DNA of 20,000 nucleotides from an uncultured virus (IMG/VR IMGVR_UViG_3300034106_003048) (taxonomy: Duplodnaviria; Heunggongvirae; Uroviricota; Caudoviricetes), in IMG/VR virus record IMGVR_UViG_3300034106_003048; one strand, 5' to 3'. The position numbers were made by a program, and so were the translations under genes. Below are positions 1,360 to 10,233 of the stretch, piece after piece. The notes beneath the pieces were generated by a model. The model was not told the DNA's origin, did not search any database, and saw only the letters and a program-made list of their open reading frames with translations. Numbering within the stretch: the first letter of the stretch is position 1; each line of letters begins with the position of its first letter.

Positions 1360-1554
1360 TTATGTCTTTCTTCCAAAGGTTATGTTGTCTCTGACCTTTA
1401 TGTCTTTGTGGGTAAACTGCCACATCTCTCCGTTATCTAGAATTACCGTATAAATAGTATCGGTCTCGTGTCCGTAATCTGTAACCAGCCAGACTATGCC
1501 TTTTCCTTTAGGAGTTATTACTTCTAGTCTATTGTGGGGTTCGTATATTGTCAT
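1360..1554 (-). CDS. hypothetical phage protein (64 aa)
   Basis: Protein-like ORF (VITPKGKGIVWLVTDYGHETD..GEMWQF) overlapping the end of the transferase gene. Confidence 0.75.
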   Translation of the reverse strand: MTIYEPHNRLEVITPKGKGIVWLVTDYGHETDTIYTVILDNGEMWQFTHKDIKVRDNITFGRKT

Positions 1555-2212
1555 CTCTTTTACATAGGGTTAAATAAAGTTCTTTGTCTGTGGACCACTC
1601 TTCGCCTGTCCACCACTCAAATCCTTTGTAGTCTGCTTTATAGGAAGAGCTTGATTCGTATCCTCCTAAAAGGTATAGGTGTTCACATTGAAAAAACTGG
1701 GCGACTTTGCACTCATAAAACTGAGACACATTACCAAGAGATAGTTTGGGGTTTTCATAGTCCCACAAAAACTGATAGGATACAAAAGCTCTACCTGTTT
1801 GGTCTCGGTATAGCTTAAAGATGTTTGCTCCTATAACCTTATTGTCTTGGTGATAGAGGATACATTCAAATCCTTTAAAGTCGTTAAGGTTTATGTCTCG
1901 TTTAAATCCATGTCTTTCTACGTACTTAAGATAGATAGGTTGTAAGACTTCTAGTATTTCATCAGACACAAAATGCAGGGAGTAGTCAACCTGCTTACTT
2001 AGTTTTTTAACAGTCTTAGTAGGTTGGTATTCCTCCACTCTAAGTCTTACCGACCTTAAATTATACCAATAGTCTCCCCACTCTACCCAACCTTCTTCTA
2101 AATACCTAAGATAAGTAGTATCCAAAGCTACTCCCTTGGGATCTGAATAGATGAAGTCTTGTTGAGAAACTTTACCAAATCCTTCTATATGGTTAAACTT
2201 TACTTTTATCAT
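1529..2212 (-). CDS. ATE1/Bpt-family aminoacyl-tRNA-protein transferase (227 aa)
   Basis: ATE_N-like LEEGW..G.YWY..SVRL; ATE_C-like YLKY...H, WDYENPKLSLG, HLYLLGGY, YKADYKGFEWW..W. Confidence 0.8.
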   Translation of the reverse strand: MIKVKFNHIEGFGKVSQQDFIYSDPKGVALDTTYLRYLEEGWVEWGDYWYNLRSVRLRVEEYQPTKTVKKLSKQVDYSLHFVSDEILEVLQPIYLKYVERHGFKRDINLNDFKGFECILYHQDNKVIGANIFKLYRDQTGRAFVSYQFLWDYENPKLSLGNVSQFYECKVAQFFQCEHLYLLGGYESSSSYKADYKGFEWWTGEEWSTDKELYLTLCKRDDNIRTPQ

Positions 2213-3292: not shown

Positions 3293-3420
3293 GTAAAAAG
3301 TGGTGTTTTCCCGGGAATTTCGGAGACAAATCGAATAAAATCTACGTTGATAAGTGGTAAAAAGTGGTAAAAAGTAGTCATTTTTACCCCCTTATTACCT
3401 ATGAATTGGTAAAAAATGGG
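3293..3420. repeat. 10-bp periodic AAGTGGTAAA repeats
   Basis: AAGTGGTAAA at 3352 and 3362, degenerate copy at 3372; GTAAAAAGTGGT at 3293; TGGTAAAAA near 3407; inverted TTTTTACC at 3381. Confidence 0.65.
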
Positions 3421-3499
3421 GTAGTGAAAAGTCAAAATTTTGCTGAACAACGTGGCTAACTTGAAAAAAGGGGTTTATTTGACTCTAATAAAGATATTT

Positions 3500-4570
3500 A
3501 CTCATATCGGGTAAAAGGGGTTCTACAGCCTTACTGTAGATAGATATAACAGGCGTTGACTGAAGCTTGTAACCGTGTCATAGCGATAGGTAGTGTGATT
3601 ACTACATTAATAGGCACGTGAGTTTCTTGCGATATGGGCAAATTTATCAATTGCTGATGTATTGCATTAAACAAGGAGGGAGTACAGGGTCTACAAATTG
3701 CCTGTACTCTCAGATTTTTTATGACGGGTGATGGCCAACATCAATAAAACAAAAGTGCAAGGCAGTAATCCTTGTCGCAACTAATAAGGCTAACCAATAA
3801 TGCCTTATACATGTTCCCTTGCGAATTATCTGATTTGCAGGGGAACTTTAAAAATCTTCTCTTTGTGCTAACCCTTTTGGGTGAATAGTTGTAGGTACGT
3901 ATTAAAATAACGTCCTATTGACCAGGTTGAAATAACCGTAGAATATCTATAACTAAGTGCGGAGAAAGTGAGTTTGTTTGGGCATTGTTCTCACTCTAAT
4001 CTAGTGAATGCATCCTATCCAGTAAGTTACTGGCGTATCAGAGAAGATACAGTAATAAAAACTCAAATAATACATTGACTGTAAATAACCGAGGGGGAGT
4101 CTTTGACCTTTGTACTCTATGCGGTTTACATGCAAGTAGAAATACTTGGGGGGGTTGTCGATGTTAAACAAAGTACTAATGCACCATTCTCACTTCCCAA
4201 GGGTGAGCAGTTGTAATAATGGTAAATATAGAATGTATCTATAAAATCTACGGACATTATTACAACTGAGTGCAGAGGGGTAAAACAAACAACTAACGTT
4301 GCAGAAGAGCAATAGTAGAATAAGAACGTATGCTTATTTGAAAACAATCTGTTGTTTGTTATTTAAAAAACTCAATAACTTTCCAAGATGTTGAGGACAC
4401 CAGTTTCTTATTGACATAGTGATTTTAGCGGTCGTGCTATCAGTGTAAATCTGATAATGGAGCACATCAATTCCATGTAAAAACGTTAGATATTGAACTA
4501 ATGTATTGGATTACAGCTCTGCAAATCATGTAACTTAGAGTCTATGCAGCTAGCACAAATAAGCATAGAT
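3500..4570 (+). ncRNA. putative long structured ncRNA or array of ncRNA modules
   Basis: No convincing ORF; many long stems whose G-U pairs favour the + strand (3501-3638, 3679-3711, 3784-3808, 3813-3846, 3860-3965, 4080-4130, 4180-4280, 4285-4359). Confidence 0.55.
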
Positions 4571-4631
4571 GCTCATGCCGTTAAAGAAATCAATAAGTTT
4601 TAGGTGTAAAACACAAATTAAAAAATTACCT

Positions 4632-4844
4632 ATGAAAATATTTGCAATAAACAAAAGGTTTTGGAATTCAAACCATGAAGGTTGGAAACAATGGATTGAG
4701 TCTGAAATAATTTCTTATCATGCTACTGAAGAAGGAGCAAATGCTAAAATATCTTCTTTTGATGATAAAGATGAAGAAATTACAGATGAGTATGGCGATT
4801 TAAGTTCTGTTTACTTCATATCTTGTATTGAAGTAAAAGAATAA
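4632..4844 (+). CDS. hypothetical protein (70 aa)
   Basis: ORF-track 4569..4844; ATG 4632 after an A-rich leader is the likelier start (MKIFAINKRFW). Confidence 0.7.
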   Translation: MKIFAINKRFWNSNHEGWKQWIESEIISYHATEEGANAKISSFDDKDEEITDEYGDLSSVYFISCIEVKE

Positions 4845-4995
4845 AAGATGAAAGAAGAATAGAGTATTTCCGAAAACTGATTTAACGAGTAGGAAAAAGG
4901 GTAAGTCTTCTATTTTAGCGAAAATTGCACTGAGTAGCTAGGGTATATATATAAGAAAGTCAGGCATGCAGTGCTATGCATGTGGTTAAATCATT

Positions 4996-5041
4996 AAAGG
5001 GAGTGACCTATAGGATCGTAGGTAGCCCTTTTGCTTTTTTT
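4996..5041 (+). terminator. hairpin plus T-tract upstream of a tRNA-like element
   Basis: AAAGGG..ACCTAT/GTAGGT..CCCTTT followed by TGCTTTTTTT. Confidence 0.45.
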
Positions 5042-5137
5042 GAGAGAGTGGCGAAATTGGTTGTGTCAATGGCGAACTAACTATGATTATTCAAATGTTA
5101 GCGTACCATATTACAGGTTCGAATCCTGTCTCTCTCA
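5042..5137 (+). ncRNA. tRNA-like element without a canonical anticodon arm
   Basis: Acceptor GAGAGAG/CTCTCTC + A; TGGCGAAATTGG D-region; T-arm ACAGG-TTCGAAT-CCTGT; middle is an irregular CTAAC/GTTAG stem with a 15-nt loop. Confidence 0.75.
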
Positions 5138-5301
5138 CAAATCTATACGCATGGGTACTGGTGTGTAGTGCATAAAGACTGATCAACTTTATGTACACGT
5201 GTATCGCTTAGCATAAGGGCAACAAACAATGCAACAGTTTCTAATAACGTATAGCTAACGTGTTAGAACGGGACCTGAGCAAGTCTATAAACTGCTTATT
5301 T

Positions 5302-5374
5302 GGCCCTTTCGTCTAATGGTTAGGACAACAGGTTTTCATCCTGTAAATGGTGTGTTCGATTCATCCAGGGGCTA
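5302..5374 (+). tRNA. tRNA-Glu(TTC) with irregular T-stem, CCA not encoded
   Basis: GGCCCTT/AGGGGCT acceptor; GTC-TAATGGTTAG-GAC D-arm; ACAGG-TTTTCAT-CCTGT anticodon arm (TTC 5335-5337); TTCGATT T-loop. Confidence 0.9.
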
Positions 5375-5387
5375 CTAAATTAAAATT

Positions 5388-5459
5388 ATGAGTTACGTAA
5401 TAGCTATTGCGATTGTTTTCATATTCGCAGCATGTATCGAGTCAAATAAAATAAACTAA
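5388..5459 (+). CDS. micro-ORF, hydrophobic peptide (23 aa, MSYVIAIAIVFIFAACIESNKIN)
   Basis: Translated by hand; A-rich leader, hydrophobic stretch ending in a lipobox-like FAAC. Confidence 0.45.
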   Translation: MSYVIAIAIVFIFAACIESNKIN

Positions 5460-5468
5460 ATAAATACT

Positions 5469-5618
5469 ATGAAAAAGACAACTTATCAAACTCAGAAGAA
5501 CTCTGGCGAAAAGATTCCAGAGAGAGTAAGCGAAGGGGTTATGCAGCAAACTGCAAAAGCCTATGTTAAAAAATTGACCGATAAATTCGGTCCAAAAGGT
5601 GGGTTTAGGTGTTTTTAA
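5469..5618 (+). CDS. small basic hypothetical protein (49 aa)
   Basis: Translated by hand (MKKTTYQTQKNSGEKIPERV...GGFRCF); typical AAATACT-ATG-AAA start. Confidence 0.6.
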   Translation: MKKTTYQTQKNSGEKIPERVSEGVMQQTAKAYVKKLTDKFGPKGGFRCF

Positions 5619-5646
5619 TCTAACCCACCTCCCTTATGGGGAAAAT

Positions 5647-5760
5647 AGTCAGGTGGCGGAACGGCTAAACGCACCGAATAGTGAAACGGAGTGGAACAAA
5701 CCGCAATATAGTTGAAATACACACAAGGTCCACATGCAGGTTCGAATCCTGTCCTGACTA
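5647..5760 (+). ncRNA. tRNA-Leu-like element with remodelled anticodon/variable region (114 nt)
   Basis: Acceptor AGTCAGG/CCTGACT + A; D-arm GCG-GAACGGCTAAA-CGC; T-arm GCAGG-TTCGAAT-CCTGT; middle is a CCG/CGG minihairpin plus a GTGGA/TCCAC stem with a long loop. Confidence 0.8.
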
Positions 5761-5787
5761 CAAATTAAAAAACTAACTAAAAAAACT

Positions 5788-6891
5788 ATGGAACAAAGAA
5801 TTGAATTACAGAAAATTTATCTTGGGTGGCAAGAGTTTCTTGCTATGCCTGAAGGGATAAAGAAAAATCTAGCGTATTCAAAGAAGATACAAGGCGTAGG
5901 TTGTTTTGTTTCTTCTATTCTAAAAAAAGAAGATGGTACTATCCATTACTCTAACACGGAATACCGTGTCTCAAAAGGTAAAGTTTATTTTCTTAAAAAA
6001 GGTAAGAAAAGCGGATTTACTGTTGACCCAAAGGGTAAGATGAAGATTTGGTTTGGTAAGAAACTAAATGAGTTTCCAATTAATTATGAATTTTTTGAAG
6101 CTTTAAAACAAGAATGGTTTAAAATAATTTATTTTAATTATGTTACACCGGCTGTTCTTGGTAAAGTGATTGCAGGAAAGATTACTAATCCTACTGATTT
6201 AGCCAAAGCAATCTTAAAGGCTTACAGAATTCAAGGTTCTCCTGCGTTTTTCTTAAAAGCCATTAATAACCAATCAGGACACTTTAGCAAAAGTCTTTTC
6301 TTAAAAGGTATTAAGGTTGCAAAGAACTTTGACCACTTTCTTCTTTACTTTGCTGAAAACGGAGCCTATAACAGTAGTTTGTTTGACATGATAGACCAAG
6401 CAATTATTTTAGAATCTAAAATAGATTTTAACTGGTCTACAAAACGAATTGAAGAAGAACACAACAACTTTACTGCTCAACTAATGGATTTAGAATCAGA
6501 CGAGTTATCTGATGAACCTCTTGAATGGCTTGAAAAGTTAAATCTTAATCTTCCAGAAAGTTGCAGACTTCTTAAATCACAAAAAGAAGTTTATAAAGAA
6601 GGAAAAATGATGCACCATTGTGTTTACACAAACTATTGGAACAGTATTGTTTCTCAATCTTTTATTGCAATTAGTGTTAATTACCAAGGATCTAATTATA
6701 CTTTGGGAATTAATTACAATAAAAATTCAGCTCAAAACAGATTTGAATTTAATCAATTGTCAGGCAAATGTAACAATCCTTCGCCACAAGAGTTAAGAGA
6801 TCAAATGAAAAACTGGATTGAAAGTCTAAACTCTACATCTAAAATTATTGAAGAATGGTCTACAATAACCGAAGAAGTATTACCCTATTAA
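5788..6891 (+). CDS. PcfJ-like domain protein (367 aa)
   Basis: C-terminal EVYKEGKMMHHCVYTNY...YTLGI...QLSGKCN matches the PcfJ EG..M.HCV..Y signature. Confidence 0.8.
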   Translation: MEQRIELQKIYLGWQEFLAMPEGIKKNLAYSKKIQGVGCFVSSILKKEDGTIHYSNTEYRVSKGKVYFLKKGKKSGFTVDPKGKMKIWFGKKLNEFPINYEFFEALKQEWFKIIYFNYVTPAVLGKVIAGKITNPTDLAKAILKAYRIQGSPAFFLKAINNQSGHFSKSLFLKGIKVAKNFDHFLLYFAENGAYNSSLFDMIDQAIILESKIDFNWSTKRIEEEHNNFTAQLMDLESDELSDEPLEWLEKLNLNLPESCRLLKSQKEVYKEGKMMHHCVYTNYWNSIVSQSFIAISVNYQGSNYTLGINYNKNSAQNRFEFNQLSGKCNNPSPQELRDQMKNWIESLNSTSKIIEEWSTITEEVLPY

Positions 6892-6941
6892 ACTAAAAAA
6901 CTAAAAAACTAAAAACAAATTAAAAATTAATTAAAAATACC

Positions 6942-7280
6942 ATGAGAAAAATGTTTCAACCCGAAGAAGACAAAGTGATCTTACAGAATGTATCACTTTA
7001 CCCTAACAATCTTGCTTACTCTTTTGAGTTATCAGCAGAACAATTAGGAAGAAACGCAGCAGGCTGTTCTGCTCGTTATTACGCTAGATTGCGTTCAAAA
7101 GAAACTATGATTGCAGTAGCTTCGTCAAATGGCGTAGTTACTCTGAACAATCAAAAGAACGCAAGGCGTGACTTTAGTACTGATTTAACTGATCAAGATC
7201 GTCTTGAATTTGTTCAAGAGATGATCAGAAAGATGCCAAGGAATATGAAGAAAGAACTTGCTAAAATCTTATTCTCTTGA
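6942..7280 (+). CDS. Myb/SANT-like (RsfA-like) DNA-binding protein (112 aa)
   Basis: N-terminal FQPEEDKVIL...SFELSAEQLGRNAAGCSARYY resembles the Myb-like repeat of RsfA-family regulators. Confidence 0.6.
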   Translation: MRKMFQPEEDKVILQNVSLYPNNLAYSFELSAEQLGRNAAGCSARYYARLRSKETMIAVASSNGVVTLNNQKNARRDFSTDLTDQDRLEFVQEMIRKMPRNMKKELAKILFS

Positions 7281-7282
7281 GT

Positions 7283-7633
7283 ATGAGAACTTTCAATCTC
7301 AATTGTGCTCTGGGATTGATTATCTTTGGTATTTTGGGACTACAGGCATCTGCTTGTAGTACCCAAACTGCCAAGGTAGTCGACAGTCTCCCAAAACTTT
7401 GTATTGATCCAAAATTTGGAAAACTTACAAAGGATGACTCTACTTTTGTTTTCAACGTAATTAATCGTGAAAAGCCGATTAAACATCATATCATAAAGGT
7501 TGACAGTGGTGTAATTTTAACAATAGTTAAGAAAAATCTTGAACAGGTTTACGTAACTAGAAACGGTGCAATAGATGATTATTACGAAATAGAAAACGGA
7601 AAGGTAGTACTTTATTGTAAAGAATTTGAATAA
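7283..7633 (+). CDS. putative secreted protein or lipoprotein
   Basis: Hydrophobic N-terminus ending in ASAC; ATG 7283 preferred over TTG 7277. Confidence 0.65.
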   Translation: MRTFNLNCALGLIIFGILGLQASACSTQTAKVVDSLPKLCIDPKFGKLTKDDSTFVFNVINREKPIKHHIIKVDSGVILTIVKKNLEQVYVTRNGAIDDYYEIENGKVVLYCKEFE

Positions 7634-7636
7634 GTT

Positions 7637-7879
7637 ATGAGAACATTTTTATTAGTCGTACTTTATTCTCTTATGATTATGCTTATAGTCGGCATTGTAG
7701 GACTTGTAGGATGTCAAGATGAAGAAGTGCCAAAAAAAGAAAGTCATAAACTTAGTGATTTTGGCTATAAAATTGAAATTGTAACAATAGATTCTTGCGA
7801 ATATGTTTTTGGACCTTGGGGAAATGGAGCAGTCTTAACCCATAAAGGTAATTGTAAAAATCCTATTCACAAAAAGTAA
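7637..7879 (+). CDS. putative lipoprotein (80 aa)
   Basis: Hydrophobic leader ending in LVGC; C-terminal IDSCEY...LTHKGNCKNPIH motif. Confidence 0.75.
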   Translation: MRTFLLVVLYSLMIMLIVGIVGLVGCQDEEVPKKESHKLSDFGYKIEIVTIDSCEYVFGPWGNGAVLTHKGNCKNPIHKK

Positions 7880-7888
7880 CAGAAATTT

Positions 7889-7975
7889 GGCCGGATCGTC
7901 TAGTGGTTTCCATTTGGATATAAGGACGCTGGATTTTCATTCCAGAAACGGTAGGTTCGATTCCTCCTCCGGCTA
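7889..7975 (+). tRNA. tRNA-Glu(TTC) with enlarged D-loop and bulged T-stem, CCA not encoded
   Basis: GGCCGGA/TCCGGCT acceptor; CTGGA-TTTTCAT-TCCAG anticodon arm (TTC 7936-7938); GG[T]AGG-TTCGATT-CCTCC T-arm; D-loop insert containing TCCA/TGGA. Confidence 0.85.
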
Positions 7976-7990
7976 CTAATTAAACTAACT

Positions 7991-8404
7991 ATGAATAAGT
8001 ACATTAAACCCACAAAGAAAGTAGTTATAGACGGCAAAGTCTATACTGCTGTAAGAGAAAGGAATTACATTCCTGAACCTGAAACTAAACCCAGGAGAAT
8101 TACCGATGAGTATGTTAGTCCAAAAGCTAACAATCCTATTGTTAAGACTCTTGAAGAGATTATCGAATCTAACTTGAATGATTATTTTAAATCTGTTGAG
8201 TTAGAAATTTCTGAATTAAAGAAAGAATCTCTCACCCTAATTATTAGCGGATATACCGAAAAAGGTATTGACATGTTAAAACATGCTAATCAATTAGAAA
8301 CTGAAATTACCTCTGCTAAAACCAAAGCAAAGATTGATTGGATGAGTCGTATCTTAATTAGATATAACGACTTGACTAAACAAATTGTAGGCAGAGAATT
8401 CTAA
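7991..8404 (+). CDS. hypothetical protein (137 aa)
   Basis: ORF with A-rich leader and helical C-terminal half. Confidence 0.8.
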   Translation: MNKYIKPTKKVVIDGKVYTAVRERNYIPEPETKPRRITDEYVSPKANNPIVKTLEEIIESNLNDYFKSVELEISELKKESLTLIISGYTEKGIDMLKHANQLETEITSAKTKAKIDWMSRILIRYNDLTKQIVGREF

Positions 8405-9354: not shown

Positions 9355-10233
9355 ATGGAAACAAAAGGAAGTATGGTTGAGCATGTCAACCGTAAGTCAA
9401 TGCTTATTAGACCATCAGGTCGTTCTACAGATTTTATTAGTCCTTCTTTTGGTTATGGTTGTCTCTATAACTGTTCTTATTGTTATATGAAACGCCATAA
9501 ACCAGAAGGATTAACTGTTGCAACTAATATCGGGGATATTTTGACTGCTATAAACAATCATGCCATGTTCGCAGTTGTAGATAAGCCTAATCAAACTCAC
9601 GAGTCATTAGTAACTTATGACATCTCTTGTAACGAAGACTTTTGTTTGCATGCGAAGTTTTATGATTGGAAACGTATCTTTGATTTCTTTAAAGATCATC
9701 CAAGGGCTATGGGTTCATTCGCAACCAAATATGTAAATAAAAATTTACTTGAGTACAACCCAGAAGGAAAGATTAGGATTAGATTTAGTCTTATGCCACA
9801 ATGTTATGCGGACTATTTAGAACCTAATACTACCCCTATACTTAATCGTATGGAAGCAATAAACAGTTTTATAGAAGCCGGCTACGATGTTCATGTAAAT
9901 TTTAGTCCAGTTATTTATGAAAAAAACTGGACAGATGCATACAAAGAACTCTTTATACAATTAGACCATGCAGTCAACCCTGAGTATAAAGATAGAGTTA
10001 AAGCAGAAGTTATCTTTCTAACGCATAATGAAGATAAGCATAAAAGAAATCTTATTTATGATCTTCCAGGTGAACATTTACTTTGGCGACCTGAAATACA
10101 AGAAAACAAAATATCAGAGTACGGTGGCGAAAATATCCGCTACAAACACAATCTAAAAGCTAGTTACATTGATCAGTGGACAGAACTACACGATGAGATA
10201 ATCGGCTGGAATACGATTAGGTACATATTTTAA
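9355..10233 (+). CDS. splB: spore photoproduct lyase-family radical SAM protein (292 aa)
   Basis: GYGCLYNCSYCYM (CxxxCxxC), YDISCNEDF, FATKYVN, RIRFSLMP, EAGYDVHVNFSPVI motifs typical of the SPL family. Confidence 0.85.
   Translation: METKGSMVEHVNRKSMLIRPSGRSTDFISPSFGYGCLYNCSYCYMKRHKPEGLTVATNIGDILTAINNHAMFAVVDKPNQTHESLVTYDISCNEDFCLHAKFYDWKRIFDFFKDHPRAMGSFATKYVNKNLLEYNPEGKIRIRFSLMPQCYADYLEPNTTPILNRMEAINSFIEAGYDVHVNFSPVIYEKNWTDAYKELFIQLDHAVNPEYKDRVKAEVIFLTHNEDKHKRNLIYDLPGEHLLWRPEIQENKISEYGGENIRYKHNLKASYIDQWTELHDEIIGWNTIRYIF

Follow-up and report, generated by a model that had tools for sequence, protein, structure and literature searches.

Two non-decoding, tRNA-Leu-like elements in a lake phage very probably belong to a large, uncatalogued family

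Introduction

The tRNA clusters of phages have long been known for a few 'stable RNAs of unknown function', such as rnaC and rnaD of T4 and RNA1 of T5. Here we report on a 20,000-nucleotide (nt) stretch of DNA from an uncultured virus of the Caudoviricetes (IMG/VR record IMGVR_UViG_3300034106_003048), the whole of which we call the window, and on two elements within it, W1 and W2, that are shaped like tRNA-Leu but have no anticodon arm. Our confidence is high that both elements genuinely belong to a large and so far uncatalogued family of phage RNAs that mimic tRNA-Leu without decoding. The window thus shows RNAs of the T4 and T5 kind as the tip of a large modular family, in which a single host-tRNA-Leu-like frame is combined with at least 160 inserts and occurs in up to 13 copies per 5-kb array.

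T5 RNA1 (NC_005859 30501-30644), annotated as a 'tRNA-like stable RNA with unknown functions', is encoded among clustered phage tRNAs and is built like a member of this family: it has a 7-bp acceptor stem, a leucine-type D arm (CCG-GAAUUGGUAGA-CGG) and a T arm, and an insert of ~75 nt replaces its anticodon and variable arms. It differs from the family in its acceptor and T-arm sequences, in belonging to a coliphage and in being a single copy beside three other 'stable RNAs'. T4 rnaC and rnaD (NC_000866 70908-71171) are annotated as small stable RNAs, species 1 and 2, where the tRNA cluster of T4 ends. In rnaC, the 3' 92 nt, comprising acceptor, T arm and a non-tRNA middle, align at 25.7 bits to R1, a covariance model of the family frame that is not in Rfam and was built from relatives in this analysis. 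However, rnaC extends at its 5' side beyond the tRNA-like fold and shows neither Leu-type frame identity nor a multi-copy family or array. T5 RNA1 reaches 30.7 bits with R1 (E 1.6e-6, in 3 kb), next to 29.4 bits for a real tRNA-Lys of T5. Since the scores of T5 RNA1 and T4 rnaC fall within the range of the real tRNAs of the same phages, they speak for a likeness of kind rather than for common descent. W1 and W2 share with both RNAs the location in a phage tRNA cluster and the tRNA-like ends around a non-tRNA middle; the T5 and T4 RNAs are stable according to their annotation.

Plant mitochondria are said to contain t-elements, reportedly described by Forner and colleagues in 2007: tRNA-shaped, non-decoding structures beside protein genes, at which cuts by RNase P and RNase Z make mRNA ends. 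They resemble the punctuation part of the mechanism proposed below, but are organellar, unrelated in sequence and without an invariant frame, conserved insert or arrays. The tRNA-like domain of tmRNA is an anticodon-less mimic charged by alanyl-tRNA synthetase (AlaRS), an enzyme that ignores the anticodon. In our family, leucyl-tRNA synthetase (LeuRS) would take the part of AlaRS, whereas the G3.U70 pair and the tag reading frame of tmRNA are both missing from W1 and W2. In the engineered 'tRNA scaffold', reportedly devised by Ponchon and Dardel in 2007, the anticodon arm is swapped for an RNA of interest, which accumulates once the tRNA enzymes of the cell have trimmed it. The scaffold shares the design logic of frame plus insert with the family, but it is man-made, and the natural family also replaces the variable arm.

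Two tRNA-Leu-shaped elements without an anticodon arm

Both W1 and W2 consist of a 7-bp acceptor, a D arm, an insert, a T arm with a TTCGAAT-type loop and a discriminator base, laid out as follows.

5042-5137, plus strand: W1, predicted gene for a 96-nt anticodon-less tRNA-Leu-shaped RNA; R1 57.0 bits; variant acceptor GAGAGAG/CTCTCTC
5042-5048 with 5130-5136, plus strand: W1 acceptor, GAGAGAG pairing with CTCTCTC; discriminator A at 5137, then CAAAT
5051-5065, plus strand: W1 D arm, GCG, loop AAATTGGT, UGU, with U8 at 5049 (sequence and constrained fold)
5069-5109, plus strand: W1 insert, predicted to fold into a hairpin (ATGG/CCAT and CTAAC/GTTAG, 15-nt loop)
5113-5129, plus strand: W1 T arm, ACAGG-TTCGAAT-CCTGT
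5647-5760, plus strand: W2, predicted gene for a 114-nt anticodon-less tRNA-Leu-shaped RNA; R1 74.6 bits; commonest family frame, AGTCAGG/CCTGACT
5647-5653 with 5753-5759, plus strand: W2 acceptor, AGTCAGG pairing with CCTGACT; discriminator A at 5760, then CAAAT
5656-5672, plus strand: W2 D arm of leucine type, GCG, loop GAACGGCTAAA, CGC, with U8 at 5654
5674-5733, plus strand: W2 insert, hairpin CCG/CGG at 5674-5689 and hairpin GTGGA/TCCAC at 5691-5733 with a 33-nt loop, then AU
5736-5752, plus strand: W2 T arm, GCAGG-TTCGAAT-CCTGT

The original prediction had described a pair of anticodon-less RNAs with different acceptors, each perfectly paired over 7 bp, with mutually unrelated middle regions, and with GTGGCGRAA..GG, an identical 17-nt T-arm stretch and a trailing ACAAAT in common; we recovered every one of these traits from the sequence. 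The feature common to both elements reads GTGGCGAAATTGG in W1 and GTGGCGGAACGG in W2. The 20 kb contain exactly two copies of the 17-mer CAGGTTCGAATCCTGTC, one at 5114 and one at 5737, where 0.01 copies are expected and two or more copies arose in 0/200 shuffles. When the frame helices are imposed, the constrained cloverleaf folds reach -25.4 kcal/mol (W1) and -25.6 kcal/mol (W2). At positions 27-43, neither element shows an anticodon stem of 5 bp or the 7-nt loop that it would close (U33, anticodon, R37). In the constrained fold the D stem of W1 is present but of wobble type (GCG/UGU, pairing as G.U, C-G and G.U), and the W1 insert hairpin closes 3 nt 5' of the T stem, which is the position of a variable arm, and has no 7-nt anticodon loop. 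The first insert hairpin of W2 folds with a 3-bp stem and a 10-nt loop bearing AGUGA.

Standard detectors largely pass over the two elements. The sole ARAGORN call in the window is a tRNA-Glu at 5302-5375, and once introns are allowed the program produces forced calls, Ala(agc) for W1 and Thr(agt) for W2, both of which clash with the Leu-type frame. The Rfam tRNA model (RF00005) gives W1 32.2 bits (cut-off 29), aligning only the acceptor, the 5' D region and the T arm, that is, its top half, and leaves W2 unreported even at E up to 1. A covariance model from homologues, the second check that had been suggested, sets both elements well above the rest of the window: R1 gives 74.6 bits for W2 (E 2.6e-16) and 57.0 bits for W1 (E 4.8e-12), with the next window match at 15 bits. 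In the region 3300-8100 of the window, YrlA/Y RNA-like (RF02553), mascRNA, skipping-rope and other Rfam tRNA mimics gave no match at E up to 1. A tmRNA search of W1 and W2 (ARAGORN -m) also returned nothing, and pair 3:70 is U-A in W2 and G-C in W1, not G.U.

W1 and W2 belong to a large family with a near-invariant frame

A pattern made of the two motifs shared by W1 and W2, separated by a gap of 50-80 nt, matched at least 123 stretches of IMG/VR viral contigs. Among the matches listed, 126 elements (including W1 and W2) could be parsed, and 86 of these have the acceptor AGTCAGG/CCTGACT exactly as in W2, the remainder having mostly other, fully complementary acceptors; the discriminator is A in 108/126. 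The W1 acceptor is a rarer, fully paired variant, sharing pairs 2-7 with two relatives in which pair 1:72 is altered on both sides relative to W1 (TAGAGAG/CTCTCTA in L183 and CAGAGAG/CTCTCTG in L184). In an alignment of 98 non-redundant members, 6/7 acceptor pairs show double, compensatory changes (50 cells), and the pair counts exceed those of all 500 shuffles and all slid controls. The aligned rows had been pre-selected for full pairing, so the percentage paired in the acceptor is high by construction, which does not apply to the compensatory changes.

Conservation was assessed in a set of 80 elements found without any D-arm constraint. U8 is present in 75 of them, the GG of the D loop in 77, A73 in 70 and C74 in 79, while U precedes the T stem (position 48) in 66, U stands at -1 in 60 and the canonical GCG...CGC D stem is found in 53. 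The acceptor is fixed even in sequence in 68/80. The family frame is a 7-bp acceptor, U8, a D loop with GG, the T arm RCAGGTTCGAWTCCTGT, A73 and C74, all of which W1 and W2 share. They also fit the family context, in which a non-tRNA insert lies between the D and T arms and the elements sit in phage DNA among tRNAs or between open reading frames (ORFs).

With R1 we found matches in 50/51 viral records, at 1-20 per record, the lower-scoring ones being real tRNA-Leu or tRNA-Ser. One 40.9-kb phage fragment contains 13 elements of 70-142 nt within ~5 kb, interleaved with 7 real tRNAs. When W2 was compared by blastn with 50,697 GenBank phage records, only generic T-arm or D-arm pieces were retrieved (best coverage 28%). 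In bacterial genome collections, the family's 3' 23-mer is confined to 20 stretches on 18 contigs, every one of which is metagenome-assembled and 9 of which are labelled Bacteroidota; this search revealed no normal host tRNA with the family acceptor and T arm. A full-text literature search found no description of the family. It is large, missing from Rfam, overlooked by tRNA finders and apparently undescribed, and its carriers are probably phages of Bacteroidota in fresh water.

The frame resembles host tRNA-Leu and keeps the determinants of LeuRS recognition

Five metagenome-assembled genomes (MAGs) bear one element each, and from four of them we took the 8 next-best R1 matches. All eight are tRNA-Leu, seven of host type and the eighth on an element-bearing contig. 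The tRNA-Leu genes of these hosts (Bacteroidota MAGs) share the family D arm UG-GCG-GAAYUGGUAGA-CGC, and one of them has a T arm identical to that of the family in 16/17 positions. As in the family, a C comes after A73, and the host genes differ in acceptor sequence alone. By contrast, the tRNA-Leu genes that the phages themselves encode are unlike the family, with a GUG/CAC D stem. At the level of sequence, then, the family frame is a copy of the tRNA-Leu of Bacteroidota hosts.

The base after the discriminator is C in 79/80 elements and in real tRNA-Leu of these phages and hosts (in the window, 5138 and 5761). CCA is not encoded, the usual trailers being CAA and CTA. A C after the discriminator without an encoded CCA hints at a particular 3'-processing rule in these hosts.

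According to the part of PMC2377443 cited here, leucine identity for bacterial LeuRS consists of A73 and the tertiary core U8-A14, A15-U48, G18-U55 and G19-C56; removing the anticodon stem-loop in its entirety lowers the affinity of LeuRS only 2.5-fold, and LeuRS reads no acceptor base pairs base-specifically. A73 and all of these tertiary-core bases are present in the sequences of W1 and W2. The family thus appears to retain what LeuRS reads and to replace what LeuRS can spare, insofar as that part of the source describes it.

Inserts are diverse between elements and conserved within orthologous groups

Inserts range from 18 to more than 105 nt and are highly diverse: grouped by insert, 188 unique elements form 160 clusters, of which 143 have a single member. 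Within clusters, however, inserts are conserved, with an identity of 0.73-1.0 in 49/49 same-insert pairs, against both 100-nt flanks at background (mean 0.59) in 47/49 of these pairs. Side-by-side views reveal that identity begins at base 1 and ends at base 73/74. The whole tRNA-shaped RNA is therefore the unit that is selected or that moves. In orthologous groups, the insert helices are kept with compensatory changes, and inserts fold better than their dinucleotide shuffles (mean z -0.71, n=144, p 2e-13). The words RGUGA and UACAC are enriched in family inserts, as is GGTTC (9 observed vs 3.1 expected). For the inserts of W1 and W2, the only orthologues located lie on a near-identical contig of 5.8 kb, and covariation is unavailable for these two inserts for that reason.

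These results bear on the earlier contention that selection acts on the tRNA top half only, rather than random decay. Uncompensated decay of the acceptor, named beforehand as the sign of a mistaken reading, is not what the homologues display, the helix being kept by compensatory changes. Selection on anticodon-less tRNA-like RNAs is upheld by the compensated acceptors and the near-invariant frame; its restriction to the top half is not, given that the middles are conserved too.

In some inserts there is a second T-arm-like hairpin, such as ACGG-TTCGATT-CCGT (L132, L044, L101 and L144 5141-5230), and elements of this type may have two 'elbows'. We also noted near-identical elements, differing by 0-2 bases, in wholly unrelated flanks (L017 vs L074, L099 vs L030, and L144 1992-2077 vs 2525-2610), the last pair lying within the same phage. 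Their sequences suggest cassette-like movement or gene conversion via the conserved frame halves.

Elements abut small genes more often than real tRNAs do

The immediate surroundings of W1 and W2 are occupied by a genuine tRNA gene and ORFs.

5302-5375, plus strand: genuine tRNA-Glu(UUC), ARAGORN, Rfam 50.5 bits; sits between W1 and W2
5470-5618, plus strand: 49-codon ORF read from the sequence; its stop lies 28 nt 5' of W2
5788-6891, plus strand: 367-amino-acid (aa) ORF with a PcfJ-like C-terminal domain; its start lies 27 nt 3' of W2

Family-wide, 44/183 elements have a co-oriented ORF (40 codons or more) whose stop lies 0-10 nt upstream, compared with 8/138 real tRNAs in the same loci (Fisher p 6e-6), and an ORF starts 11-30 nt downstream of 38/139 elements, compared with 12/142 real tRNAs (p 4e-5). 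Abutment by ORFs is ~4x more frequent for elements than for real tRNAs. In the 13-copy array, the spacers are filled by small ORFs (54-115 aa) that stop 5-7 nt before the next element. Since ORFs abut both ends of the elements, cuts at both ends would free individual small-gene mRNAs.

Lake metatranscriptome contigs from four runs contain family members, some with two copies, although DNA carry-over is possible. Summed contig depth, which comes from assembled contigs without ends or strand, is 13-27 over the conserved 3' part and 2-4 over neighbouring coding sequence. A scan for promoters and terminators gave no signal above shuffles.

A proposed mechanism

With moderate confidence, we propose that the elements are non-decoding tRNA-Leu mimics excised by tRNA-processing enzymes, with a frame that is read by host tRNA-Leu factors, an insert that has a copy-specific function, and punctuation built in. 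The elements would be transcribed together with neighbouring genes. Host RNase P would then cut at base 1 and a 3' tRNA-processing nuclease of the RNase Z type after base 73/74; CCA would be completed, and the excised RNA would accumulate as a stable tRNA-like molecule. The same cuts would part the flanking small-gene mRNAs. Host LeuRS, or some other tRNA-Leu-specific factor, probably recognises the frame and may charge it, because the parts that LeuRS needs are kept and the dispensable ones dropped. The insert would be the part that differs in function between copies.

More tentatively, the family might constitute a natural 'tRNA-scaffold' cassette system, in which the tRNA-Leu-mimic frame displays hundreds of diverse small folded RNAs with effector action on host proteins or RNAs, for example as anti-defence decoys, with recombination swapping the inserts. 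The frame would secure excision, stability and perhaps binding to LeuRS or EF-Tu, and its 25-nt conserved halves would double as homology arms for insert swaps between elements and between phages. Such swapping would explain both the identical elements in unrelated contexts and the 13-insert arrays.

Should the inserts be effectors, the family would represent a new route of small-RNA delivery by phages; should the elements serve chiefly as cutting marks, mitochondrion-style tRNA punctuation would be far commoner in bacteria-infecting viruses than recognised. Either way, they offer testable substrates for the action of LeuRS, RNase P, RNase Z and EF-Tu on anticodon-less tRNAs, and they bear on the annotation of such elements in viral metagenomes and on whether nature reached the 'tRNA scaffold' of RNA engineering.

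Several points weigh against excision of a LeuRS-readable mimic with a functional insert. Most loci came from a pattern that itself fixed parts of the D and T arms. The canonical GCG...CGC D stem is missing from 27/80 elements, and the D stem of W1 is wobble-paired, so LeuRS cannot recognise every member. None of RNase P, RNase Z and LeuRS accounts for how strictly the acceptor sequence is conserved, within what the cited part of the LeuRS source covers. Some inserts are tiny (18 nt) and ill-suited to a functional payload in every copy; 50 kb of arrays yielded no Rfam family in the inserts at E up to 1; and no antisense complementarity beyond shuffles was found for the middles of W1 and W2 within the window, nor for 19 inserts in their own phage DNA. 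The RNA data are assembled contigs, some of which extend into flanking sequence. Finally, W1 lies directly 3' of a T-run that follows a hairpin, which leaves its transcription unit unclear.

An antisense guide role was rejected for the tested inserts, no complementarity rising above shuffles in the window or in own phage DNA. The DNA in the latter test comprised two genomes, of 197 kb (complete) and 68 kb, and a fragment of 40.9 kb, and the 2/19 inserts that reached a nominal p of 0.03 or less were both same-strand matches.

Alternative explanations

Could the elements be nothing but RNase P and RNase Z cutting marks between the mRNAs of small phage genes, with an excised RNA and insert that have no function? 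The gene layout fits this pure form of punctuation, a role that the original prediction had also raised: the ~4-fold excess of ORF abutment over real tRNAs in the same loci, the alternation of small ORFs with elements in the 13-copy array, the U at -1 in 60/80 elements, and the placing of W2 28 nt downstream of one ORF and 27 nt upstream of the following one would all be expected of it. Yet processing enzymes read shape, whereas the acceptor is fixed in sequence in 68/80 elements and the D arm is that of host tRNA-Leu; inserts are up to 100% conserved in unrelated contexts, with compensatory changes; and, at ~105 nt, the median element is a long stretch for a compact phage genome to spend on a cutting mark. 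Punctuation thus accounts for the arrangement of genes and leaves the fixed acceptor sequence and conserved inserts unexplained, and as the sole function of the elements we consider it unlikely.

More doubtful still is a leucine-charged mimic or decoy, that is, either a non-ribosomal donor of leucine charged by LeuRS or a sink for a factor that binds or attacks tRNA-Leu or tRNA 3' ends. It is favoured by the retention of A73, U8, A14, G18G19 and the T loop and by the copied D arm of host tRNA-Leu, and the high copy number would suit a need for dosage. In the part of PMC2377443 cited above, the anticodon arm is dispensable for LeuRS, and the cited part of PMC4105747 describes aminoacyl-tRNA protein transferases as reading the sequence of the acceptor stem, which could explain the fixed acceptor. 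The window even contains an ATE_C-like (Bpt-type) ORF at 1529-2212, albeit at 24.4 bits against a cut-off of 25. However, the diverse, conserved inserts would be left unexplained, the canonical D stem is lacking from the 27/80 elements mentioned above, and no partner emerged. Among the ORFs flanking 148 elements there is no conserved neighbour protein, the largest cluster having 3 members. The ATE-like gene is unlinked to the family: 0/50 family-bearing records have a homologue of the 1529-2212 ORF, 0/50 match PF04377 (ATE_C; the control was positive in 1/14 genomes), and at the viral loci with a homologue R1 has a match within 10 kb in 0/6 and in whole records in 0/5. The previously suggested role as an amino-acid donor accordingly stays plausible on the side of the LeuRS identity set, which is kept, and finds no support on the side of a partner.

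With no co-occurrence in either direction, the Bpt/ATE-like ORF was rejected as a partner of the family.

It is very improbable that the elements are real decoding tRNAs, of tRNA-Leu or another type, disguised by a short intron or an expanded anticodon arm. ARAGORN can, with introns allowed, force calls on W1, W2 and many relatives, and in a few relatives, such as L006 'Glu(ctc)', the D arm is indeed followed by a 5-bp/7-nt hairpin. But the forced calls scatter over isotypes, anticodons and intron positions, placing Ala(agc) and Thr(agt) on the Leu frames of W1 and W2, and without introns only 24/125 relatives are called. No Rfam intron family matches, and at 18-105 nt the inserts fall short of group I introns, whose sizes lie above this range.

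Least credible of all are decaying tRNA-Leu pseudogenes, which would likewise lack an anticodon arm and escape ARAGORN as W1 and W2 do, but would not be expected to have compensatory changes in the acceptor stem, a near-invariant frame over at least 123 loci, up to 13 copies in one phage fragment and identical elements in unrelated contexts.

Other features of the window and of another phage

The window is AT-rich (G+C 29-40% across it) and phage-like, with many small same-strand ORFs and PHROG matches to a peptidase and a DNA helicase. The same DNA is present in 20 lake-water metagenome runs, and record G001, which begins at window base 6811, is the same phage.

A stretch of 235 nt in another phage (G039, near 63.9-64.2 kb; L147 3428-3662, minus strand) fills the gap between two tRNA genes of the phage tRNA array. 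Its alignment to class A of bacterial RNase P RNA runs end to end (model 1-367; 49.7 bits, below the cut-off of 100; E 2e-12), and, judged by this alignment, it could be a phage-encoded, reduced RNase P RNA; the phage has ~30 tRNAs and 12 R1 matches.

In the window, a second tRNA-Glu(UUC)-like gene is located at 7889-7975 (plus strand), whose D loop contains 16 inserted nt able to fold into a small hairpin of their own. Rfam tRNA gives it 48.4 bits and ARAGORN makes no call; it may be a non-standard phage tRNA. Just 5' of the tRNA region, the ~1.1 kb at 3450-4570 contain no plus-strand ORF of 50 aa or more and two short ones on the minus strand, and Rfam gives no match there at E up to 1.

The ORF at 1529-2212 (minus strand, 227 aa), whose domain resembles that of arginine/leucine-tRNA protein transferases, has homologues with 31-59% identity on 6 viral contigs and is a candidate for an aminoacyl-tRNA-using enzyme in a phage. 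A spore photoproduct lyase (radical SAM) domain is clearly recognised, at 85.6 bits, in a 292-aa ORF at 9355-10233 (plus strand), a gene for DNA repair carried by a lake phage.

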